This document shows, one piece after another, positions 8,844 through 61,846 of a stretch of 64,000 bases of DNA. Every line of letters starts with the position of its first letter. Within the stretch, counting starts at the first letter, position 1. Origin of the DNA: Acidobacteriota bacterium (GTDB taxonomy: Bacteria > Acidobacteriota > Thermoanaerobaculia > Multivoradales > UBA5704); assembly GCA_040349255.1 (NCBI GenBank), contig JBEQUE010000231.1:34641-98640 (forward strand). Direction: 5' to 3'. A program made the position numbers and the translations under genes. The notes under the pieces were generated by a model. The model was not told the origin of the DNA. It saw only the letters and a list, made by a program, of their open reading frames with translations, and did not search any database.

Positions 8844-9062
8844 CTATCCCCGTTCTCGGGACTCGCGGATGGCCTCCAGGATGTCCTGCATCGTTGCCTG
8901 TGTCCTGACGGGCGCCACGTCGAAGGGCGAGGAGCTCTGCGGCCGAAGGGCGACGCTGAACTGCTCGCCATTCCGACGCCGGATGATTACCTCTTCCCGC
9001 CGGGCCTCCTCCAGCAGAGTGGCGAGGTGCTCTCGGGCCAGGGTGTATGTATATACCTTCAT
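8844..9062 (-). CDS. Phd/YefM-type antitoxin with no intact toxin next to it
   Basis: MKVYTYTLAREHLATLLEEARREEVIIRRRNG, a Phd-like N-terminus. Confidence 0.75.
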   Translation of the reverse strand: MKVYTYTLAREHLATLLEEARREEVIIRRRNGEQFSVALRPQSSSPFDVAPVRTQATMQDILEAIRESRERG

Positions 9063-9065
9063 GGT

Positions 9066-9167
9066 TCACACCAGCAGTTGAATGTTGAGCTGCTCTGCGA
9101 CTTCCCTCATCGGCTCATTCTAGGCGAGCTGGAGGCGTTCTTGTCGCCTTAGAGCGCCTATATCAAA
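9066..9167 (-). pseudogene. Probable C-terminal remnant of a PIN toxin
   Basis: Manual translation gives FDIGALRRQERLQLA*NEPMREVAEQLNIQLLV*, with an in-frame TAG at 9120-9122. It ends 4 nt before the antitoxin ATG, and the tail resembles PIN toxin C-termini. Confidence 0.4.
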
Positions 9168-9458
9168 ACGGCCCAACGGGCCTGTCGTTACGGGTGTTTG
9201 CGACGCGGTCAAGTCGCGTCCTGGCCCTGGCCGGATGCTGGTGATTGTCTGTAGTTGGTGGACCACAAGTGGACCATTCTCGCCTTCGAGGGAGAGACCC
9301 TATGAGCCCCTTCTCGCGGCGAGGATCATCAACTCAGCGAGGTTCGCCCGGCCGGCGTCCAAGAGATCGCACGCCCACTGTGCCTTGACCCATTCCTCAT
9401 GTCGCCTCAAACTGGGCGTATTGCGAGCTTCGGCCGAGATGTGCGGCCGATCGGACAA

Positions 9459-9691
9459 TCAGCGCTGCCGTCGTGCCGCCTCAACCGCGGCTCGTCCGAG
9501 CTCCGCCGGAGTGGCTTTGAACGCCGCCTCCAATCCTTTCCTGGCCGCCGATGTTTGCAGGCGCTCGAGCAGACCCTCGAACTTGGTGCTTAGCGCCTCG
9601 AGGGTCTCGGAACGCGCGCTGCTCAAGGACTCGAGCTCTTCGTAGGAAAGAGCACTGCTTTCGGCGCGTCGTGCCGGGTGATCGCGACGGC
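9459..9691 (-). pseudogene. Frameshifted Phd-type antitoxin remnant (type usually paired with a zeta/AAA toxin)
   Basis: AVAITRHDAPKAVL, a one-base frameshift near 9650, then LSYEELESLSSARSETLEALSTKFEGLLERLQTSAARKGLEAAFKATPAELGRAAVEAARRQR*. Not present in the ORF track. Confidence 0.65.
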
Positions 9692-11115: not shown

Positions 11116-11475
11116 CTACTCCGGCTGCGGCAGCGGGCTGTCGTCCGTGCTGCGCGTCCGGGTGTGCAGCGGCTGGAGGCCGAACTCGGCGACCTTCTGG
11201 CTGCGGTTGCCGTAGTGCTCGCGCACCGAGGTGCGCAGCACCGTGGCGAGCTTGCGGCCCTGGGCCAGCAGGAAGTAGACCCGCTCGGTGGCCTGCTGCC
11301 GGCTCGCGGTCAGCGCGGCCTGCTCGGCCGTGAAGGCCCGGATCTGGTCCAGGAGGGTCTGGAGCCTCTGGCGGGGGAGGTCCAGTTGCGCGAGCTCGCC
11401 GCTGTTCTCCTCCAGGGCGGTCAACAGCTCCTCCCATCCGTTGACGGTCGCGCCGTACGACTTCGAGTTGGGCAT
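11116..11475 (-). CDS. Hypothetical alpha-helical protein, 119 aa
   Basis: Strong RBS AAAGGAGAAGGAC-ATG; dedicated promoter and terminator; helical sequence ending EFGLQP. Confidence 0.8.
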   Translation of the reverse strand: MPNSKSYGATVNGWEELLTALEENSGELAQLDLPRQRLQTLLDQIRAFTAEQAALTASRQQATERVYFLLAQGRKLATVLRTSVREHYGNRSQKVAEFGLQPLHTRTRSTDDSPLPQPE

Positions 11476-11608: not shown

Positions 11609-11649
11609 GACGGATCGGTAGTCTAGATCCGTCTCATTGTGGATGTCAA
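11609..11649 (-). promoter_or_regulatory. Sigma70-type promoter with overlapping inverted repeat
   Basis: TTGACA (11644-11649)-N18-TAGACT (11620-11625); the IR GACGGATC-N9-GATCCGTC (11609-11633) straddles the -10. Confidence 0.7.
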
Positions 11650-11733: not shown

Positions 11734-12056
11734 CAGCCTCTCGGCAAGTTCGACGGGCCTCTCCGCGGGCTTCCCGGGACTCCCGTTGGCCTTGACGAGG
11801 CTCTCGTCGAGCTTCCCGAGCCTCTCATCCAGCTCGACGAGCCTCCCGGCGGCCTCCCGGGCCTTCCATCCAGCTCGACGAGCCTCTCCGCGACCTCCGC
11901 GCGGCTCTTGTCGAGGTCGTCGAGCCTCTCATCCAGGCGGACGAGCCTCTCATCGAGGTGGACGAGCCTCTCGTCCAGATGGATGAGCCCCTCGTCGACC
12001 TCCCGAGCCTCCCGTCCAGCTTGCCGAGCCTCTCGTCGAGCTCGTCCGGAGCCTCG
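11734..12056. repeat. Degenerate 21-bp-period tandem array (~15 units)
   Basis: The gagcctctc-like core recurs at 11734, 11755, 11776, 11797, 11818, 11839, 11859, 11880, 11901, 11922, 11943, 11964, 11985, 12005 and 12026. Confidence 0.9.
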
Positions 12057-43797: not shown

Positions 43798-46198
43798 CGG
43801 GCGGCCGGTCCGCCTTCTGATTTTCTCGACGGTGTTCCCGAACGCCGCCCAGCCGCACCACGGGATCTTCGTGCGCGAGCGGATGCGCGGCCTGCCGGAG
43901 GACGTCGAGGTCCGCGTCGTGGCGCCCGCGCCATGGTTCCCGTTCGTCTCCGGCCTGCGTCCGGGCTTCCGCCCTGACGTCCCGAAGGAGGAGGTTCAGG
44001 ACGGCATCCGCGTCCTTCATCCCCGCTTCCTTTCCATTCCCGGCTTCGGCAAGAGCCTGGACGGTCTCTTTCTCTTCCTGGGCTCGCTGCCGGCGCTGAT
44101 CCGCCTGCGCCGGGATTTCCGGTTCGATGCGATCGACGCGCATTTCGTCTACCCGGAGGGGCTGGCAGCGGTCCTGCTCGGAAAGGTTTTCAAGAGGCCG
44201 GTACTGATCACGCTGCGCGGCATGCTGCCGCTCCTGGCGCCTTACCGACTGCGCCGGCCGCAGCTCCGTTTCGCCCTGCGCGGCGCGGCGCGGATCGTCG
44301 CGGTCTCCGGCTCGCTCAAGGAGGACGCGGTGCGGCTCGGCGTGGATCCCGGCCGTGTGCGGGTGATCGAGAACGGGATCGATCCCGAGCTGTTCCGCCC
44401 GCTCGATCGCAACGAGGCGCGCCGCTCGCTGGGCCTGCCGGAGGACGGTCCGCTCCTGGTCTCGGTCGGTACGCTCTCGCCGAGAAAGGGTTTCCATCTG
44501 GTGATGGAGGCCATGGCCAAGCTCCGTCCGGACGTGCGTTTCGCGGTCGTCGGCGGCGACGGCGCGGAAGGAGCCATGGAGGCGGAGCTGCGTGCGCTCG
44601 CGGCCCGGCTCGGTCTTCAGGACCGCGTGAACTTCGCGGGGCCGCGGGGCCGCGGCGAGCTGGCCGCCTGGTACAGCGCCGCCGACGTCTTCGTGCTGGC
44701 GAGCGGCCACGAAGGCTGCCCGAACGTGGTTCTTGAGGCCCTGGCCTGCGGCACGCCGGTGGTGGCGACGCCGGTCGGCAACGTGGCCGAGCTGGTGACG
44801 CCGGACGTGGGCATCGTGGCCGAACGAAAGGTTTCCGAGTTGGCGGGAGCGATCGGGCAGGCGCTCTCCCGCGGCTGGAATCGCGAGGCGATCCGGGCGC
44901 GCATCGAGCCGCGGACCTGGAAGGCTGTGGGGCGGGAGGTGATGGAGGAGGTCCGGGCGGTGAGGGGCTCGAGGATCCTCTACCACCACCGCACCCGCGC
45001 CGGCGACGCCCAGGGCATCCACATCGCGGAGATGCAGCGCGCCTTCCGCGACCGCGGCCACGAGGTGACCGAGGTGGCGCTGGTCGAGGCCGGCGCCGAG
45101 GCGCGGGCGGACGAGAAGGGCGGCTCCGCGCGCGGGCTGGCCGGCTTCGCGTCGCGCCTGGCCGGGGCGTTGCCGCTGCCCGCGAAGGAGATCCTGGAGC
45201 TCGGCTACAACCTCGTGGCCTATCGCCGGCTGTCCAAGGCCATCCGCCGGCTCCGTCCCGACTTCCTCTACGAGCGTTACTCCGCCAACACCTTCGCCGG
45301 CCTCGCCGCGGCGCGCCGCCACGGCGTGCCGTTCGTGCTGGAGGTCAACTCGCCGCTCGCGCTCGAAAAGACCGAGCACGACGGACTTTTTTTCAAGCGC
45401 CTCACCCGGTTCGTGGAGCGCCGGCTGTGCAGCGGAGCCGACGTCACGATCGCGGTGACGCGCGTTCTGGCCGGCATCCTGGAGGACGAAGGGGTGCCGC
45501 CGGGCAAGGTCGTGGTCATGCCGAACGGCGTGCGCCGCGAGTTCGGGGCCGGCGCGGACCGGGAGGGATTCCGCCGCAGGCTGGGCATTCCGCCGGACGC
45601 CGTGGTCGCCGGCTTCGTCGGCTGGTTCCGCGCCTGGCACGGCCTGGAGCGCCTGCTGGAAGCCGCGGCCAGCCCCGAGTGGCGAGCAGCCAGCGTCCAT
45701 CTCGTCCTCGCCGGAGACGGCCCGGCCATGCCGACCTTGCGGACGATGCGTGCCGAGCTGGGACTGGAGGACCGGGTCCACCTCTGCGGCGCGGTGCCGC
45801 GGGGCGAGGTGGAGTCGGCGCTGGCGGCGTTCGACGTCGCGGTCCAGCCGGCGGTCACGTCGTACGCGTGTCCGATGAAGGTCATCGAATACATGGCGGC
45901 CGGCCTGGCGATCGTCGCTCCCGGCTCGGACAACGTGCGCGAGCTGCTCGACGATGGAGAGACCGCCCTGCTCTGCCCGGGCGGGGCCAATCCGTCCCGG
46001 GAGGATCTGAGAGACGGCGTGCTCCGGCTGGCCCGCGATCCGGAGCTGCGCCGGCGACTCGGCGCGGCGGCCCGGCGGGCGCTCCTGGAGCGCGGCTATC
46101 TGTGGGAGGAGAACGCGCGCCGCGTCGAGGAGCTGGTGGCACGGATCAAGCAAAGACAGGGGGCCGTGGTCCCTCTTGGAGAGGTGGAATCTTGCTGA
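43781..46198 (+). CDS. Fused tandem GT4-GT4 glycosyltransferase (805 aa)
   Basis: Two complete GT4 units (EGCPNVVLEALA; ACPMKVIEYMAAG) in one frame; internal GGAGGAGG plus GTG at 44960. Confidence 0.8.
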   Translation: MPSASDGRPVRLLIFSTVFPNAAQPHHGIFVRERMRGLPEDVEVRVVAPAPWFPFVSGLRPGFRPDVPKEEVQDGIRVLHPRFLSIPGFGKSLDGLFLFLGSLPALIRLRRDFRFDAIDAHFVYPEGLAAVLLGKVFKRPVLITLRGMLPLLAPYRLRRPQLRFALRGAARIVAVSGSLKEDAVRLGVDPGRVRVIENGIDPELFRPLDRNEARRSLGLPEDGPLLVSVGTLSPRKGFHLVMEAMAKLRPDVRFAVVGGDGAEGAMEAELRALAARLGLQDRVNFAGPRGRGELAAWYSAADVFVLASGHEGCPNVVLEALACGTPVVATPVGNVAELVTPDVGIVAERKVSELAGAIGQALSRGWNREAIRARIEPRTWKAVGREVMEEVRAVRGSRILYHHRTRAGDAQGIHIAEMQRAFRDRGHEVTEVALVEAGAEARADEKGGSARGLAGFASRLAGALPLPAKEILELGYNLVAYRRLSKAIRRLRPDFLYERYSANTFAGLAAARRHGVPFVLEVNSPLALEKTEHDGLFFKRLTRFVERRLCSGADVTIAVTRVLAGILEDEGVPPGKVVVMPNGVRREFGAGADREGFRRRLGIPPDAVVAGFVGWFRAWHGLERLLEAAASPEWRAASVHLVLAGDGPAMPTLRTMRAELGLEDRVHLCGAVPRGEVESALAAFDVAVQPAVTSYACPMKVIEYMAAGLAIVAPGSDNVRELLDDGETALLCPGGANPSREDLRDGVLRLARDPELRRRLGAAARRALLERGYLWEENARRVEELVARIKQRQGAVVPLGEVESC

Positions 46199-56810: not shown

Positions 56811-57452
56811 ATGGTTTTCGGGGAGCTGCTGGAGATCGTCGGGGAAGAGCCGGTCTTCGAGACCGGGCTCCTGCTGGCCGGCGCGGTCGATCCCCAGGAT
56901 GTCCGGCGCCAGCTTTCCCGGTGGACCGGCGCCGGGCGCCTCTACCAGCTCCGCCGCGGCCTCTATGCCCTGGCTCCGCCGTTCCGGAAGGGGAAGCCCC
57001 ACCCCTTCCTGGTGGCGAACCGCCTGGTCCTCGGCTCCTATGTGAGCCTGCAATCGGCCCTGGCCTACTACGGGCTGATTCCGGAGGCCGTGCCGGTGAC
57101 CACCAGCGTCACCCCCGATCGACCGGGTCGGTGGGACACGCCGCTCGGAACCTATGAGTTCCGTCATCTGCAGGCCGACCTCCTGACCGGCTACCGATGG
57201 CTGGAGATGACGGACGGGCAGTTCGCGTACGTGGCGAGCCCCGGGAAGGCCCTGCTCGACCTGATCCATCTGGAGCCGGAGGCGGACTCGTCCCGATACC
57301 TGGAAGGGCTGCGCCTTCAGCACCTGGAGATGCTCGACAGGGACGAGCTTCGGCACATGGCCGCGCTCGCGGGGAAGCCCAAGCTGAAACGGGCCGCAGA
57401 GCGGATCGTCGAGCTCGCGGAGCGGGAGTCCGAGGAGTACGAGACCCTGTGA
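56811..57452 (+). CDS. AbiEi-like type IV antitoxin / regulator
   Basis: wHTH-like LYQLRRGLY; SYVSLQSALAYYGLIPE; ASPGKALLD. Confidence 0.85.
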   Translation: MVFGELLEIVGEEPVFETGLLLAGAVDPQDVRRQLSRWTGAGRLYQLRRGLYALAPPFRKGKPHPFLVANRLVLGSYVSLQSALAYYGLIPEAVPVTTSVTPDRPGRWDTPLGTYEFRHLQADLLTGYRWLEMTDGQFAYVASPGKALLDLIHLEPEADSSRYLEGLRLQHLEMLDRDELRHMAALAGKPKLKRAAERIVELAERESEEYETL

Positions 57453-58255
57453 AGGAGAGATTGAAGGAACTCGTCCGCGCCAGCCCGGATGCGACGGAAG
57501 CCCGCAACCGGATCCGCGAATATCTCCAGGCGGAGATCCTGGCCTCGCTCCAACGCTCGGGCGCGATGGTTCCGCTCGCCTTCCAGGGCGGGACGGCCTT
57601 GCGCTTCCTGTATTCGATCCGGCGGTTCTCCGAGGATCTCGACTTTGCCCTGGAGAGGCCCGAGGGCGGATACGACTTCCGGAAACTCGTGAAGGCCGCT
57701 CAAGCCGACCTGGCCCGGAAGGGGCACGCAGTCGAGGCGCGGGTCGGCGATCAGAGGACCGTCCACAACGCGTTTCTACGGTTCCCGGGCCTCCTGTCCG
57801 AGCTGGGCCTGTCGCCGCACGCCAACGAGATCTTCTCGATCAAGCTGGAGGTGGACACCCGTCCGCCTGCCGGAGCGGGCCTCCTGACGACGCTCGTCCG
57901 CAGACATCAGACCCTGCGTCTTCAACACCACGATCCGGCTTCCCTGCTGGCGGGAAAGCTCCACGCCATCCTGCAGCGCCCCTATCCGAAAGGGAGGGAC
58001 ATCTACGACCTGATCTGGTACCTGAGCGATCCGGGCTGGCCCTCGCCGAACCTCATCCTGCTCAACAACGCCCTGGCGCAGACCGGCTGGAACCGCGGGA
58101 TTCTTGCCCCGGACGACTGGCGAAGCGCGGTGAGCGATCGTCTCAAGGACCTGGACTGGCCGAGGATCGTGGCCGACGTCCGGCCTTTTCTGGAATCTCC
58201 CGCCGATACTGCTCTTTTGAGTCGCGAAAGCCTCGACCTTCTGCTGAAGCGCTGA
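57449..58255 (+). CDS. AbiEii/AbiGii nucleotidyltransferase toxin
   Basis: FQGGTALR...RRFSEDLDF, KLHA and GRDIYD motifs; GTG start overlaps the upstream TGA. Confidence 0.9.
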   Translation: MKERLKELVRASPDATEARNRIREYLQAEILASLQRSGAMVPLAFQGGTALRFLYSIRRFSEDLDFALERPEGGYDFRKLVKAAQADLARKGHAVEARVGDQRTVHNAFLRFPGLLSELGLSPHANEIFSIKLEVDTRPPAGAGLLTTLVRRHQTLRLQHHDPASLLAGKLHAILQRPYPKGRDIYDLIWYLSDPGWPSPNLILLNNALAQTGWNRGILAPDDWRSAVSDRLKDLDWPRIVADVRPFLESPADTALLSRESLDLLLKR

Positions 58256-58316: not shown

Positions 58317-58817
58317 ATGGCTCTGGCTGGCTCCACGACGCAGACCCGCGAGCAGGTCTTCCCCGTGCTTCTTCGCGCCTGTGAAGAGGTCTACGGCGGG
58401 CGGCTGATCGCGGTGGTGATCTTCGGCTCGAGCGGCCGCGGAACGGCCAGGCCCGATTCCGACGTCGACCTTCTCCTCATCGCCAGCTCTCTGCCCCACG
58501 GACGCATGCACCGGGTCGAGGAGTTCGAGGAGGTCGAGAGGCGCCTTGGCGAGCTTCTACCGCCGGAGCTTGGATCCGTTCCTCCTCTTTCACCCGTCCT
58601 TAAGACGCCTGAGGAGGTCGGCCATGGTAGCCCCCTCTTCCTGGATATGACCGAAGATGCCCGGATTCTTTTCGATCGGGAGTGTTTCTTCTCCCGGGAG
58701 CTCGACAGGCTCCGGACGCGCCTTGCGGAGCTCGGCGCTCGACGGATCTGGCTCGGCAACGCCTGGTATTGGGACCTCAAGCCCGACTACCGTCCCGGCG
58801 AGGTCTTCGAGCTGTGA
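58317..58817 (+). CDS. Minimal nucleotidyltransferase (MNT)
   Basis: FGSSGRGTARPDSDVDL. Confidence 0.88.
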   Translation: MALAGSTTQTREQVFPVLLRACEEVYGGRLIAVVIFGSSGRGTARPDSDVDLLLIASSLPHGRMHRVEEFEEVERRLGELLPPELGSVPPLSPVLKTPEEVGHGSPLFLDMTEDARILFDRECFFSRELDRLRTRLAELGARRIWLGNAWYWDLKPDYRPGEVFEL

Positions 58818-59236
58818 CCAACCTCTCGCTGGCGCAGAGCTATCTTCTCAAGGCGAGATCACGCCTGAAGATTCTCCAGGTTCTGCTCGACGAAGAAGCG
58901 TTCTCCGATGTAGTCCGGGAGGCCCAGGAGATCGTAGAGCTTTCTCTCAAGGGCATGCTGCGGCAGGTGGGAGTCGAACCTCCCAAGTGGCATGACGTAG
59001 GCGGCTTTCTGTTGGAGTTCGATGACCGCTTCCCGGCCGTGACACGAGACCGGCTGGAGCAACTGGCCCAGATCTCCGCCCGTCTGCGCAAGGAGCGCGA
59101 GTTCTCGTTCTATGGCGATATCGACTTCATCCCGACTGAGCAATATTCGCGCGAGGACGCTCATCGGGCGATTGCCGAGGCTCAGATGACCGTTGAGGCG
59201 GCCGCCGGGATCATCCCTGCGCTCTCAGCCGAGTAG
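58814..59236 (+). CDS. HEPN-domain protein
   Basis: AQEIVELSLKG, PPKWHDV and REFSFYGD; coupled to the MNT gene. Confidence 0.85.
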   Translation: MTNLSLAQSYLLKARSRLKILQVLLDEEAFSDVVREAQEIVELSLKGMLRQVGVEPPKWHDVGGFLLEFDDRFPAVTRDRLEQLAQISARLRKEREFSFYGDIDFIPTEQYSREDAHRAIAEAQMTVEAAAGIIPALSAE

Positions 59237-59280
59237 GGACTGGAGCAGATCAGCGTCTCGTGCGACGGATCGGACAGGGA

Positions 59281-59746
59281 TCGTCGCGATCCCCGTTGCT
59301 TGCGTCGCGAACAGAGCTCGCTTCGCGACTTGTCCAGGATGATCCGTCGCGAAGATGGTCCATTCGGGGTCCATCTCCAGAGGGAAGCTCTCCCCCTCGA
59401 TTGAAACGTCGCGATCTCGCGCTTTCCTGGCTTCGCCAGGGATATTGCGTCGCGAAGTTGTCTTGTAGCGTCGCGAAGTGGCGCTTTGTCGTCGCGAAGT
59501 CTGGATAGGTCGTCGCGATCTTGGCTTGATCCGTTGCGATCTGTTGACGCTTCGCGACGAATAGATTTGAGTTGTCGAGATTTATGGGTATCATGTCGAC
59601 GAACGAGCAGGGATCGCGACGTTCCCTGTCGGATGGATCTGTATGGTGGCGTTTGGCGTCGCGAATCAGAGTGGATTCAAGACGGAATCGGATTCGACTG
59701 GAGTAAGATAGTCGCGAAGCGTCGCGAAGTAGGGTGGGTTCGCGAC
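59281..59746. repeat. Array of 15 TCGCGA palindromes, partly at 21-bp spacing
   Basis: Exact TCGCGA at 59284, 59305, 59323, 59347, 59409, 59450, 59471, 59492, 59513, 59552, 59614, 59659, 59712, 59722 and 59740; variant TTGCGA at 59534. Confidence 0.9.
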
Positions 59747-59760
59747 GGAGGAGGGATCCA

Positions 59761-60249
59761 TTGAGCGCGAAGCTTTCGGTCGAAGAGATCCTGACGCACC
59801 TGGAGAGGCAGATGGCCTTCCACAAGCAGAAGGAAGAGCACCACGCCGCGCAGGAGGTGTTCCATCGCGAGCAGAAGGCGCTCCATGCGACGGAGCACGA
59901 GGCCATTGTCCGGCATTATGAGGCGTTCAAGGCCACGTCCGGCACGGCGGTCGAGATCGCGGTGCGCACCGGCATGTCCGGGAAGGCGTCGGTCCGGGAC
60001 CTGCCGCCGGGCCAGCCGGTGGTGCGGAGCCGCCTCGTGGCCCTGCTGATCGAGGAGATCCCGGCCGGCCAGCTCTTCCAGGCCTCCACCCTGACGGCCG
60101 AGATGAACCGCCGCTTCCGGGAGGCCCTGCGCAAGCCCGCCGACACCCTCCTCGTCTCCGCCGCCCTCCGGCGCCTGGCCGCCAACGGCGTCATCCGCCT
60201 CGTCGAGAAGGGCAGCGCGCACCGGGAGGCGCGCTACACCAGGGCGTGA
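59761..60249 (+). CDS. Hypothetical protein: His-rich coiled coil plus probable winged-helix C-terminus
   Basis: GGAGGAGG RBS then TTG; high-GC coding style; VSAALRRLAANGVIRLVEKG resembles a wHTH recognition helix and wing. Confidence 0.7.
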   Translation: MSAKLSVEEILTHLERQMAFHKQKEEHHAAQEVFHREQKALHATEHEAIVRHYEAFKATSGTAVEIAVRTGMSGKASVRDLPPGQPVVRSRLVALLIEEIPAGQLFQASTLTAEMNRRFREALRKPADTLLVSAALRRLAANGVIRLVEKGSAHREARYTRA

Positions 60250-60253
60250 CCCG

Positions 60254-61846
60254 CTATCCAGTTGCGTGGATGGGCAGCTTGGCCCGGCGGTTGATCTCCT
60301 CGTCGCTGGGGCTGAGCGCGAGGCTCTGCGGCAGCGGCACGAGGTCGCAGCCGAACCGGTCGCGCCGCAGGTGGGCGTAATCCGCGGCCTTGTCGAGGAG
60401 GACCCGGCCGGTGCCGCCGCTCATCGGGTGCTCGCCCTGCGCCACGGAGGCCCGCTGCAGCGACGCATACCCGATGACCGAGAGCAGCGCGGCGGAGGTG
60501 CGGAAGTCCCAGCGGCCGAAGGTCCAGCGCAGGATCTTTGCGGCCATGTCGCGGCCGGAGTAGAACCCGCGGTAGCAGCGCAGGAGCAGCTCTCTCCACT
60601 GGTCCGGCTCGAGCCGGGGGTGGTTCCAGGTCACGCAGGTGCCGTCGAACCGGTCGAGATTGCGCTCGAAGATCAGGCCCTGCTCCAGGAAATCCTGGTA
60701 CTGGTCGGTGCCGGGGATCGGGGTCAGGATGTAGAACGACGCCACGTCCGGCGCCAGCTCGCGCAGTTGGCGCAGATGATCGAGCACCCCGTCCTCGGTG
60801 TCCTGGGGAAAGCCGAGGATGTTCGAGAAGTGGGTCGTGATGCGGTGCTTCCGGCAGAGCTCGACGATGCGGCCGTAGGTCTCGGGATGGTTCTGGAACT
60901 TGTGCGCGTCGCGCAGCACCTCGCGCCGGAACGACTCGACCCCGACGAACATCTGGAAGCAGCCGGCGCGCGCGAGGAGCTCGACGAGATCCTCCTGGCG
61001 CGCGATCTGGGTGTCGCACTGGACGAACAGCGGCAGCCGGATGCGCTCGTCGATCATGGCTTCGAGGAGCTGGCGTACCTCGGGATACTTGTTGAAGTTG
61101 TCGGCCGTGAACATGATGATGCGCACGCCCGCGGCCTTGGCGGCCTTGAGGCTCGCGATCGTGGTGGCGACCGGCTGGCTCCGCACCTGCCGGCCGGCGA
61201 TCTTGATGACCGAGCAGAAGTTGCAGGTGTAGGGGCAGCCGCGAGCCGGATAGACGCCGAGCATCCGCACGGAGTACCGCCTTAGGTCACGCGCTGACGG
61301 AGGCTTGAGCGGCGGCGGATCGAGATGCGCCTGCCATCGGGCGTCCTGGCCGTAGACCGGCCGGAGCTCGCCCGCGAGCGCATCGCGCAGGATGGCTGGC
61401 CAGACGCTCTCGGCCTCGGACAGCGAGAAGCTCACGCCGCGTCCGTGAAGCTCCGAGGTGTCGCAGGTCATCGGGTGGGGCCCGCCGATCACGGCGTTCT
61501 CGACGCCGCGGGAGCGCGCGAAGGCAGCCAGGTCGAGAGCGCGCTGGAACTGGTGGCTCTGGACCCCGGCGAGCGCGAGGAGCGTGCGGCGGTGCGGATC
61601 GCGGGCGAGGAGGTCCAGATAGTCGAGGTCGGCGTGGACGTACTCGTCCACCGTGACCACCTCGCACCGCGCGCCGTCCACCGTTTCCGGCGTGAGGCTC
61701 GCCAGGTAGGACACCGTGGAGTTCGGCATGAAGCCGCGCCGGAAGCGCTGGACGTGGCCGTCGGCGTCGTACTTGCCCGGCTTGAGGACGACGACGCGCA
61801 GGGAGGAGGATCCCGAGACGGTGAGGCCAGCTCCGGAAGCGTTCAT
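60254..61846 (-). CDS. Radical SAM protein with B12-binding-like N-terminal region
   Basis: RGCPYTCNFC (CxxxCxxC), VIGGPH, FTADNF and FVGVES; AAAGGAGG RBS. Confidence 0.85.
   Translation of the reverse strand: MNASGAGLTVSGSSSLRVVVLKPGKYDADGHVQRFRRGFMPNSTVSYLASLTPETVDGARCEVVTVDEYVHADLDYLDLLARDPHRRTLLALAGVQSHQFQRALDLAAFARSRGVENAVIGGPHPMTCDTSELHGRGVSFSLSEAESVWPAILRDALAGELRPVYGQDARWQAHLDPPPLKPPSARDLRRYSVRMLGVYPARGCPYTCNFCSVIKIAGRQVRSQPVATTIASLKAAKAAGVRIIMFTADNFNKYPEVRQLLEAMIDERIRLPLFVQCDTQIARQEDLVELLARAGCFQMFVGVESFRREVLRDAHKFQNHPETYGRIVELCRKHRITTHFSNILGFPQDTEDGVLDHLRQLRELAPDVASFYILTPIPGTDQYQDFLEQGLIFERNLDRFDGTCVTWNHPRLEPDQWRELLLRCYRGFYSGRDMAAKILRWTFGRWDFRTSAALLSVIGYASLQRASVAQGEHPMSGGTGRVLLDKAADYAHLRRDRFGCDLVPLPQSLALSPSDEEINRRAKLPIHATG

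Follow-up and report, generated by a model that had tools for sequence, protein, structure and literature searches.

The locus analysed here raises the question of why an Acidobacteriota chromosome should carry a regularly spaced array of TCGCGA hexamers directly upstream of the gene for a 162-aa protein. It lies in a stretch of 64,000 nucleotides (the window), and the initial annotation had read it either as a DNA-binding protein that regulates itself and has a phased array of binding sites, or as a sink for a TCGCGA-specific restriction/methylation enzyme. Our analysis confirms the sequence features described initially and establishes the anatomy of the locus, its statistical reality, the fold of the protein (as a model) and, throughout the family, an association of gene and array in which the motifs are specific to each paralog. 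We consider it likely that the phased array is coated by the product of the adjacent gene, a sequence-specific winged-helix protein that regulates its own expression. Binding, cooperativity and autorepression are inferred, and for no member of the family do data on binding, expression or phenotype exist.

Sites, promoter and start codon at the locus

The window contains 38 copies of TCGCGA, 15 of which fall within 59284-59745 (462 bp; binomial P = 1e-22 for at least 15 of 38 in 462/64000 of the window). This bears out the earlier count of 15 exact copies in about 460 bp of lower-GC DNA, the GC content being 0.52 in the array as against 0.65-0.75 in the flanks. Window-wide, the hexamer is under-represented (38 observed versus 58.5 +/- 6.9 in shuffles). 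The exact 21-bp run described initially is found at 59450, 59471, 59492 and 59513, a fifth copy at 59534 being degenerate (TTGCGA), and the phasing proved to be stronger than first described. The array site is asymmetric and reads CGTCGCGAAG; GT[CT]GCGA is present 12 times in forward and 4 times in reverse orientation. The forward copies, at 59283-59721, all fall on a single lattice, the best period being 10.45 bp when periods of 8-40 bp are scanned (Rayleigh R = 0.95, reached by 0 of 2000 random position sets), and the sites therefore lie on one helical face. The word GTCGCGAA occurs 12 times in the 64 kb, 11 of them in the array; the single outside copy compares with 5.1 +/- 2.4 expected window-wide. 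The elements of the locus, in order, are as follows.

59269-59293, no strand: left arm (25 nt) of an inverted repeat bracketing array and promoter, 92% complementary to 59610-59634; the extended palindrome GGGATCGTCGCGATCCC and the first forward site (59283) lie within it, and orthologs L106 and L107 have a counterpart
59283-59540, forward strand: phased direct-repeat lattice, GT[CT]GCGA starting at 59283, 59304, 59346, 59408, 59449, 59470, 59491, 59512 and 59533
59304-59329, no strand: inverted pair GTCGCGAA-N10-TTCGCGAC, its 26-bp layout recurring at 59533-59558 (degenerate) and 59721-59746
59533-59558, no strand: second inverted pair, GTTGCGAT-N10-TTCGCGAC, immediately 5' of the -35 element
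59567-59594, forward strand: TTGAGT-16-TATCAT, the sole sigma-70-like consensus promoter found (1 site, 0.1 expected)
59610-59634, no strand: right arm of the bracketing inverted repeat, reading cagggaTCGCGAcgttccctg and including a reverse site, in the predicted 5' leader; kept in L106, L107 and L109
59658-59665, forward strand: lone forward site GTCGCGAA in the leader, on the 10.45-bp lattice
59703-59708, forward strand: TAAGAT, which resembles a -10 box but lacks any recognisable -35 element; the promoter scan did not call it
59711-59746, no strand: putative proximal operator cluster, with forward sites at 59711 and 59721 (10 bp apart) and a reverse TTCGCGAC at 59739-59746 adjoining the ribosome-binding site
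59747-59755, forward strand: ribosome-binding site GGAGGAGGG, kept in orthologs
59761-60249, forward strand: gene for the 162-aa protein (TTG start), with N-terminal helix, disordered linker and C-terminal winged helix

Successive lattice steps measure 21, 42, 62, 41, 21, 21, 21 and 21 bp, the last five forward sites being exactly 21 bp apart, and the vacant lattice positions look like decayed units. The inverted pair at 59304-59329 is a candidate dimer operator. The promoter consensus TTGAGT-16-TATCAT is placed between the phased run and the gene and is accompanied by one-mismatch copies of the site, GTCGAGA in its spacer (59574-59580) and GTCGACGAA directly 3' of the -10 box (59595-59603). 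Corresponding -10 boxes read TATGAT in L106 and L107 and TACATT in L108. The initial annotation had placed two copies of GTCGCGAAG between a TAAGAT box and the ribosome-binding site. The copies are indeed present at 59711 and 59721, directly 3' of TAAGAT, but the promoter assignment is weakened by the absence of a -35 element. TAAGAT may be a second promoter, and TAAGAT in L107 and TAAACT in L108 occur at comparable distances, but the upstream TTGAGT/TATCAT is the more likely promoter. When the family loci were scanned strictly for sigma-70 promoters, one was found between array and gene in the window, L001, L006 and L065 alone, and the promoter position is therefore not established family-wide. 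The gene starts with TTG at 59761, downstream of GGAGGAGGG, a start supported by the ATG that orthologs have at the same position.

The 162-aa protein and its fold

The AlphaFold2 model of the protein (mean pLDDT 81) consists of a helix (residues 4-70), a disordered segment (71-88) and a winged helix (89-161). The initial prediction of eight His residues in an N-terminal helix followed by a wHTH-like C-terminus agrees with this model and, as regards the winged helix, with Foldseek; the eight His lie within residues 13-52. Four of them, H21, H28, H35 and H42, form a ladder with E25 and E32 in between, His occupying heptad position a in four consecutive heptads with hydrophobic layers on either side. 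Across 94 sequences H28 and H35 are 100% conserved, and E25, E32, R36, E37, Q38 and R39 are conserved in at least 90%. We infer that this invariant polar His/Gln/Glu stripe acts as a switch that controls self-association in response to metal, ligand or pH, the oligomeric state and metal binding being unmodelled. As part of a 67-residue helix, the stripe is an unusual candidate sensor.

The protein gave nothing above threshold in Pfam, NCBIfam, PHROGs or a PDB-sequence profile search; its weak sub-threshold matches were DUF3253, Ribosomal_S25, MCM4_WHD and MarR_2, and 27 family members likewise showed sub-threshold generic winged-helix matches only. Exact-sequence look-up of the window protein and of P0230 returned no match. 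Foldseek searches against the PDB retrieved DNA- or nucleic-acid-binding winged helices only (Zur/Fur DNA-binding domains, PadR, RTP and eS25). Since these are generic winged helices, matched at E of 2e-3 or weaker and with TubR absent from the top 50, no family could be assigned from structure. In proteins of the Fur/Zur family the winged helix is N-terminal, and the dimerisation domain, which has His/Cys metal sites, is C-terminal. Membership of this family was considered and rejected: the alignment is confined to the winged helix (about 75-80 columns, E = 2.4e-3), the domains come in the opposite order and no Fur model of Pfam matches.

Linkage of gene and array across the family

The family comprises 429 clusters at 50% identity and was found only in Acidobacteriota, on chromosomal contigs, with 2-4 paralogs per genome in a profile scan of genome contigs that was based on a 19-sequence alignment. 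Self-identity of at least 50% is present in the upstream regions of 58 of 95 loci, and the best lag is always 20 bp (41 loci) or 21 bp (17 loci); flanks, unlike these upstream regions, peak at lags that are multiples of 3. Phased arrays (at least 5 phased steps of 20 or 21 bp) are present in 64 of 88 upstream regions and in 0 of 267 control blocks, and at least 12 same-strand sites in 54 of 88 and 0 of 267, respectively. The largest arrays have up to ~25 same-strand copies, and about a quarter to a third of the family loci have a weak array or none. The core word varies between subfamilies and between paralogs of one genome, with at least 8-10 distinct words, all of which align to the frame YGnCGCRWnGTC. 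The linkage of 64/88 against 0/267, together with this variation of the core word, supports the initial proposal that a DNA-binding protein regulates its own gene and has a phased array of binding sites, binding itself being inferred.

The same comparison bears on the readings in which the repeats are not a protein-binding array at all, namely a TCGCGA restriction-methylation sink or avoidance island, or the trace of a minus-strand heptad ORF at 59250-59906. TCGCGA is palindromic and depleted window-wide (38 versus 58.5 +/- 6.9), as a sink would have it, and the ORF is 218 aa long and spans the array. However, relatives have the same architecture with words such as CACCGCAAC, GAGCCGCAGA and GACGCGTAG, and the functional word is asymmetric in the window as well. 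The sink is not supported because these words are non-palindromic, and a restriction-modification target island, for which one fixed and usually palindromic word would be shared, was rejected, the word varying among homologous loci and being non-palindromic in most. The ORF, which had been named at the outset as the explanation that would refute a binding array, has no family match and is not retained in orthologs, and the 20-bp period of most arrays is impossible as a codon repeat; the coding-repeat reading was accordingly rejected. We give next to no credence to either form of this explanation.

Comparison with close relatives argues in turn for a binding array. Orthologs at 85-88% identity have 6, 9 and 14 sites versus 15 in the window, and the site positions have turned over while the core word and CGTCGCGAAGT are kept, which indicates selection on the sites and not on the surrounding sequence. 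The forward CGTCGCGAAGT, about 40 bp 5' of the start codon, is retained in L106, L107 and L108, and the reverse half is degenerate there. Reverse-oriented copies gather at the promoter and ribosome-binding site: 70 of 163 reverse sites fall in the last 200 bp, versus 175 of 950 forward sites (57 loci).

In some relatives the array extends to 25-60 bp from the start codon, so the promoter there must be inside or upstream of the array, part of which may be transcribed. One alternative reading is that the protein binds the repeats or leader hairpins in the transcript, which would serve translational autoregulation or be a protein sponge. The reach of the array towards the start codon fits such a scheme, as does the site adjoining the ribosome-binding site in the window. 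The predicted leader can fold into hairpins at the GTCGCGAAG...TTCGCGAC pair and at the cagggaUCGCGAcguucccug element (fold z-score -2.2), and eS25 is among the Foldseek matches. However, the phased run lies upstream of the sole promoter consensus site in the window, and the period of 10.45 bp is the helical repeat of B-DNA, a property of duplex DNA. The hairpin close to the ribosome-binding site is not conserved, since the reverse half of that pair is degenerate in orthologs, and no Rfam match at gathering thresholds was found in the whole window. We therefore allow very little room for RNA as the ligand.

The initial annotation had further proposed to test whether homologs carry arrays with co-varying core motifs. 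Its main inference passes this test, in that arrays are present in 64/88 and their words do differ, but covariation does not go beyond co-inheritance. In the predicted recognition helix, residue 134 is Asp where base n3 is C (10/10) and Ala where n3 is T (4/4), the Asp134-to-C association lying largely within one clade. Motif distance correlates with domain distance to the same degree whether the N-terminal or the C-terminal domain is taken (rho 0.38 in each case, partial 0.17 in each case), and the covariation is therefore no more than is expected from co-inheritance of adjacent DNA.

No conserved neighbour emerged from an all-against-all ORF comparison of 44 loci, the recurrent ORF clusters being alternative frames of the gene or array, and the Pfam content of the flanks in 6 loci included no motor gene (ParM, TubZ, ParA). 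Relatives of the family are absent from collections of plasmids (72,556 plasmids), phages and viral contigs.

Known systems, possible functions and significance

The literature searched offers no description of such arrays or of the protein family, in line with the earlier impression that no known system matches, and we found no described counterpart for the module of gene and array. As we read it, the module is akin to plasmid centromere and iteron modules, but without a motor or replicon. In ParR-parC (R1, pSK41) and TubR-tubC (pBtoxis), the binding protein coats phased repeats upstream of or overlapping its own promoter, cooperatively and with autoregulation. The likeness to such partition centromeres is in the phased short repeats upstream and the further sites over the promoter and leader of the binding-protein gene. 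The module differs in having no adjacent NTPase motor or conserved gene, in being chromosomal with 2-4 orthogonal copies per genome and missing from plasmid and phage collections, in its protein (a new family with a His-ladder helix) and in its arrays of up to ~25 units versus 4-10 in plasmid systems.

A centromere-like site with its binding protein, of the ParR/parC or TubR/tubC type and served by an unlinked motor or anchor that positions chromosomal loci, would account for the plasmid-centromere layout, in which phased repeats lie upstream of and include the promoter of the binding-protein gene. Repeats of 20 bp are known in pSK41 parC and a winged helix in TubR, and both are precedents for what is seen here; the 2-4 orthogonal modules per chromosome also fit. 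However, no ParA-, ParM-, TubZ-like or other conserved gene is adjacent in ~100 loci, no family members were found on plasmids or phages, and the protein is not ribbon-helix-helix and has no specific TubR match in Foldseek. We regard this reading as quite improbable.

Iteron plasmids (RepA of pPS10, pi of R6K, RepE of F) share with the module direct repeats of ~20 bp set two turns apart and inverted copies at the promoter, which in those plasmids serve autorepression of the initiator gene, and an iteron-type origin with its initiator, derived from an integrated plasmid or serving as a secondary origin, could thus be imagined: the 20-21 bp direct repeats with inverted copies at the gene promoter mirror the iteron/rep-operator plan, and the lowest-GC stretch adjoins the repeats. 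That AT-richer stretch is, however, the promoter. Iteron initiators have two winged helices (about 230-350 aa), in contrast to one in 162 aa here, and the module has no Rep Pfam match or other Rep family match, no DnaA box (up to 1 mismatch, within 56 kb) and no replicon context. It occurs in 2-4 copies per chromosome in ordinary chromosomal surroundings, with no relatives among 72,556 plasmids. A replication origin was rejected on the lack of a Rep match, DnaA box and plasmid relatives, and is hardly credible. Of the initial suggestions that the array is iteron-, centromere- or decoy-like, the iteron and the classical centromere thus fail their defining tests, and which type applies remains unresolved.

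Other DNA-coating proteins offer partial likenesses. H-NS, MvaT, Lsr2 and Rok have the same plan of N-terminal coiled-coil helix, linker and C-terminal DNA-binding domain (for the module from AlphaFold2, oligomerisation not being modelled), and the DNA-binding domain of Rok is a winged helix. However, they have no sequence similarity to the 162-aa protein and bind degenerate AT-rich DNA genome-wide, whereas the candidate site of the module is a specific, GC-rich 12-mer that in the 64-kb window is restricted to the linked array (binding inferred). Winged-helix or MerR-like proteins that assemble head-to-tail on direct repeats (OmpR/PhoB boxes, the excisionases RdfS, Xis and Cox, and BldC) resemble the module as we infer it to work, combining an asymmetric site per winged helix or HTH, tandem same-strand copies phased with the helical turn, and cooperative filaments. 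The module differs from them in lacking a receiver domain, recombinase or att context, and in having 12-25 sites versus 2-6, in a dedicated array beside its own gene. More generally, wHTH proteins frequently oligomerise on DNA (PMC11963761).

The nearest functional picture is that of synthetic lacO/tetO arrays, with tens of identical tandem operators, one cognate repressor and orthogonal pairs per cell; those arrays are man-made, whereas the module would be natural and evolving, with the repressor gene beside its array. Artificial lacO/tetO arrays block replication forks, and by this precedent the coated array might be a polar barrier to replication forks or transcription, comparable to RTP/Ter, Tus/Ter or a roadblock of arrayed repressors. 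Almost all of the sites, which are asymmetric, share one strand, and RTP is among the Foldseek matches (1f4k, E = 1.5e-2). That match is, however, marginal and generic for winged helices, there is no orientation bias relative to local GC skew (26 positive versus 27 negative in 53 loci, a weak test), and several modules are dispersed around the chromosome and not gathered at one terminus. Membership of the RTP/Ter system was rejected on the same evidence, and a barrier function seems very unlikely.

A decoy or titration array, with the true targets being single operators elsewhere and the array buffering free protein so as to set a threshold or delay, is unlikely but retains some support. There are far more sites than autoregulation requires, and the conserved polar His/Glu stripe points to a regulator that senses a signal. 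Titration of bacterial regulators by decoy sites is documented (PMC8599769, PMC7826281) and provides a precedent. On the other hand, copies of GTCGCGAA outside the array are not above chance in the other 63.5 kb of the window (whole genomes are not covered), no conserved neighbour or target gene was present among the loci compared, and a passive sink would not need its sites phased on one face with a spacing of exactly 20 or 21 bp. A dispersed regulon remains possible, because the search for extra sites was limited to the 64-kb window and flanks of up to 12 kb.

The autoregulated coating protein that we favour would work as follows. Its C-terminal winged helix may recognise the asymmetric site of ~12 bp (frame YGnCGCRWnGTC, here CGTCGCGAAG), and its long N-terminal helix would mediate self-association. 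Same-strand sites two helical turns apart would expose every site on one face of the DNA, which makes cooperative coating possible, and the protein could then cover the lattice cooperatively as a one-sided nucleoprotein filament. Copies in both orientations over the promoter, leader and DNA close to the ribosome-binding site are predicted to repress the gene itself, so that expression would be tuned to array occupancy. In what is the most speculative part of our proposal, the functional product would be the array in its coated state, serving either to mark or tether a chromosomal locus or to store protein in large amounts. We favour this over a classical regulon because of the 2-4 orthogonal modules per chromosome, the lack of a conserved neighbour and the absence of extra sites in the flanks. 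It is possible, though doubtful as yet, that these loci form a new class of natural chromosomal operator arrays in Thermoanaerobaculia and Holophagae, with 2-4 orthogonal pairs of His-ladder protein and array (12-25 sites) per chromosome, in which the coated array is a nucleoprotein landmark, switched by metal, ligand or pH, whose role is to tether, insulate or organise specific loci independently of known partition, replication and nucleoid-protein systems.

The family has no Pfam, NCBIfam or PDB relative, and defining it would lead to the annotation of several hundred protein clusters. If the protein does coat its array, the module would be a natural counterpart of the hand-built lacO/tetO arrays, and its mutually distinct protein-site pairs could be used to tag DNA orthogonally, to block passage along it or to buffer protein. 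As a stand-alone unit that retains tens of sites, inferred to be bound, on one face of the helix despite sequence turnover, the module would then represent an undescribed layer of chromosome biology or regulation in the Acidobacteriota, an abundant and poorly cultured soil phylum.

Phased sites, predicted promoter and leader of the array

The window contains 38 copies of TCGCGA as compared to 58.5 +/- 6.9 in dinucleotide-preserving shuffles (100 of 100 shuffles had at least 38), a depletion that may stem from selection against off-target sites or from the usual avoidance of palindromes. Fifteen of these copies fall within 59284-59745 (binomial P = 1e-22), confirming the cluster described in the initial annotation, and 23 lie outside the array. 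GC content of the array is 0.52 as compared to 0.65-0.75 in its surroundings. Sequence reading and repeat analysis gave an array word which is asymmetric and longer than TCGCGA, namely CGTCGCGAAG.

Features of the array and leader
59283, 59304, 59346, 59408, 59449, 59470, plus strand: first six of the 12 forward GT[CT]GCGA copies, in the same direction as the gene
59491, 59512, 59533, 59658, 59711, 59721, plus strand: last six forward copies
59323, 59552, 59614, 59740, minus strand: the four reverse copies
59304, 59533 (degenerate), 59721: three copies of the inverted pair GTCGCGAA-N10-TTCGCGAC, from repeat analysis
59269-59293 and 59610-59634: 25-nt inverted repeat arms, 92% complementary and 316 nt apart, flanking the phased run and the promoter
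59747-59755: ribosome-binding site GGAGGAGGG, followed by the TTG start at 59761

Successive forward copies are separated by 21, 42, 62, 41, 21, 21, 21, 21, 125, 53 and 10 bp. Among periods of 8–40 bp, 10.45 bp fitted best (Rayleigh R = 0.95, matched by 0 of 2000 random position sets), and therefore all forward sites across 440 bp lie on one face of B-DNA. The 21-bp run noted previously is thus the best-kept portion of a bigger lattice with decayed positions. Each 25-nt arm holds a GGGA-TCG(TC)GCGA-TCCC palindrome, equivalents of which are kept in the orthologs. The arms could be partners in a DNA loop or a symmetric site of high affinity; given this conservation, a transposable-element relic seems less likely. 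A decoy array that titrates the protein stays open as a possibility, although only one extra GTCGCGAA occurs in the remaining 63.5 kb (window only, not whole genomes).

The sole sigma-70-like consensus in 59200-60400, TTGAGT-16-TATCAT (59567-59594), is located directly 3' of the phased run. Site copies with a single mismatch are present inside the promoter spacer (GTCGAGA, 59574) and immediately 3' of the -10 (GTCGACGAA, 59595). The TAAGAT box proposed earlier as a -10 element is indeed present at 59703-59708 but lacks a -35 element. The predicted leader of ~165 nt contains five further site copies, the last three of which (59711, 59721 and the reverse copy at 59739) adjoin the ribosome-binding site. 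The TTG start is confirmed because ATG occupies the same codon in the relatives L108 and L109. Several results speak against action of the repeats or leader at the RNA level: leader folding is only slightly favoured over shuffles (z = -2.2), the hairpin adjoining the ribosome-binding site lacks conservation, and a period of 10.45 bp belongs to duplex DNA. In some relatives, however, the array extends to the start codon, so partial transcription of arrays is possible.

In the orthologous loci L106, L107 and L108 (85–88% protein identity), synteny with the window is retained, with AbiEi/AbiEii upstream and radical SAM and sigma-54 activator genes downstream. Their arrays contain 6, 9 and 14 TCGCGA at differing positions, while the core word, the ribosome-binding site, a cagggaTCGCGAcgttccctg element and the CGTCGCGAAGT located ~40 bp upstream of the start codon are kept. 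Thus sites are maintained while the surrounding DNA changes. Directly upstream of the array in the window are AbiEi/AbiEii (56811-58255) and a nucleotidyltransferase/HEPN pair (58317-59236), both of toxin-antitoxin type; a HAD hydrolase replaces the latter pair in L106 and L107, so this flank is variable.

The 162-aa protein and its family

The 162-aa product has no match in Pfam, NCBIfam, PHROGs or PDB sequences, and scanning of 27 family members gave only generic winged-helix matches, all sub-threshold. An AlphaFold2 model built from a 27-sequence alignment (mean pLDDT 81) consists of a helix (residues 4–70), a disordered stretch (71–88) and a winged helix (89–161), in agreement with the C-terminal domain anticipated in the initial annotation. 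Foldseek against the PDB returned winged-helix domains only (Zur/Fur DNA-binding domains, PadR, eS25, RTP and Z-alpha; E 2e-3 or weaker). Among 94 family sequences H28 and H35 never vary; conservation is at least 90% for E25, E32, R36, E37, Q38 and R39 and ~80% for H21 and H42. Along the heptads, position a runs V-L-H-H-H-H-V-F-A and position d V-Q-Q-Q-Q-E-H-A-L, and E25 and E32 fall at e; the N-terminal helix carries a polar His/Gln/Glu stripe over four heptads, capped by hydrophobic layers. By inference only, this stripe is a surface for self-association that responds to metal, ligand or pH.

A word-indexed search identified 51 related proteins, and when 1.84 billion representatives were searched in full with an HMM, 429 clusters were obtained at E < 1e-3, nearly all of 160–175 aa and of the same architecture. 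All 60 of 60 loci in species-representative genomes belong to Acidobacteriota (Thermoanaerobaculia, Thermoanaerobaculaceae, Holophagales). Several genomes contain two to four paralogs; among them, OY969112.1, a 7.05-Mb chromosome, has three, and DASVAS and CAWJGT have four apiece. Relatives were absent from the 72,556 plasmids, 50,697 phage records and IMG/VR contigs searched. An iteron origin was rejected on the basis of the single winged helix, the lack of a DnaA box, the several copies per chromosome and the absence of plasmid relatives.

Arrays and array words across the family

Self-identity of at least 50% in the 1.2 kb upstream was found at 58 of 95 family loci. The best of 22 lags tested was 20 bp in 41 of these and 21 bp in 17, never any other, and the two period classes track protein subfamilies; in the flanks of family loci, self-identity peaks at multiples of three. 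Several 20-bp arrays have a 40-bp super-period with alternating spacers (e.g. L044/L053, L003), a possible sign that each binding unit has two sites. A motif-discovery pipeline was applied identically to upstream regions (n = 88) and control blocks from the same loci (n = 267). At least 12 same-strand sites were present in 54 upstream regions and no control block, and at least five steps of 20, 21 or 40–42 bp in 64 upstream regions and no control block, so that homologs do carry phased arrays. The best-kept have 18–25 units (e.g. L002, L003, L006, L022, L050). A coding repeat was also rejected: the minus-strand heptad ORF (59250-59906), which would have explained the periodicity, has no family match and is lost in orthologs, and a 20-bp period cannot be codon-based.

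Forward sites are most frequent 200–500 bp upstream of the gene, while the final 200 bp holds 70 of 163 reverse sites as compared to 175 of 950 forward sites. The general layout is therefore a direct array followed by sites of mixed orientation at the promoter and leader and, last, the gene. Orientation relative to local GC skew is 26:27, which speaks, as a weak test, against the array forming a polar fork barrier.

Array words are locus-specific (e.g. GTCGCGAA, GCCGCGAA, CACCGCAAC, GAGCCGCAGA, TGGCGCAAT, GACGCGTAG, TGATGCATC) and differ between paralogs of the same genome, and all fit the single frame YGnCGCRWnGTC. Being non-palindromic and locus-specific, they exclude the restriction/methylation sink suggested initially. 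Word class tracks recognition-helix class:

Recognition helices and array words
ASTALRR: GTCGCG
ASDVLRR: CCGCAAC
VSVVLRR: GAGCCGCAG
ASVALRR with NETF: TGAnGCATC

Residue 134 is Asp wherever base n3 is C (10/10) and Ala where it is T (4/4); Thr occurs with T, G or A. The pairing is chemically sensible but not independent of phylogeny: motif distance correlates equally with the DNA-binding domain and the N-terminal helix (rho 0.38 for both). Direct binding is therefore only inferred; the grounds are adjacency of gene and array, the fold, words specific to each paralog and the retention of sites.

Other phased arrays were observed. A second, unrelated one in the window (11750-12044, ~14 units of 21 bp; minus-strand core GACGAG-AGG-CTCGTC, no intact frame across it) lies upstream of a 119-aa gene (11116-11475, minus strand) with a near-consensus promoter, TTGACA-18-TAGACT (~11620-11649, minus strand), and a strong ribosome-binding site. 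Its product has no Pfam family and 79 homologs. An 86% ortholog locus (L110) has ~18 units with the core unchanged; in a 63% homolog (L111) the promoter and a ~130-nt conserved leader remain but there is no array. At family locus L055, 3 kb downstream of the family member, ~14 near-identical 21-bp units (8880-9190; CCGGCGAGCCRTCCGCCGGAG, 93% self-identity) precede a TAGAAT -10 box and a 69-aa ORF (9335-9544; signal peptide, Cys-rich mature part). At L046 a 21-bp periodic array (887-1285; ATGCCGGC..CGCCCTCGG units) lies 1.3 kb upstream of a family gene without a clear array immediately upstream. Phased 21-bp arrays ahead of small genes may occur more widely in these genomes. The window has one tRNA gene, tRNA-Pro (CGG), at 45757-45849.

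Relation to known systems

Nearest in working are a plasmid centromere with its binding protein and an iteron/Rep pair, which share phased repeats, inverted promoter copies and autoregulation; H-NS/Rok-type proteins are alike in domain plan. The module fails the defining membership tests of all three and a full-text literature search found no description of such a module, in line with the initial impression that no known system matches. No conserved neighbour of the family gene was found, the flanks being ordinary chromosomal genes. No motor gene is linked to the family loci, which speaks against a classical partition centromere, but an unlinked partner cannot be excluded.

No particular purpose of the array can be put forward with more than low confidence. 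That the array is coated and serves a function of a new kind is a tentative suggestion, though its chance is substantial. Binding of the array by the protein, together with autoregulation, is likely, direct binding being inferred. We classify the module as a stand-alone chromosomal operator array with a putative cognate autoregulated binder.
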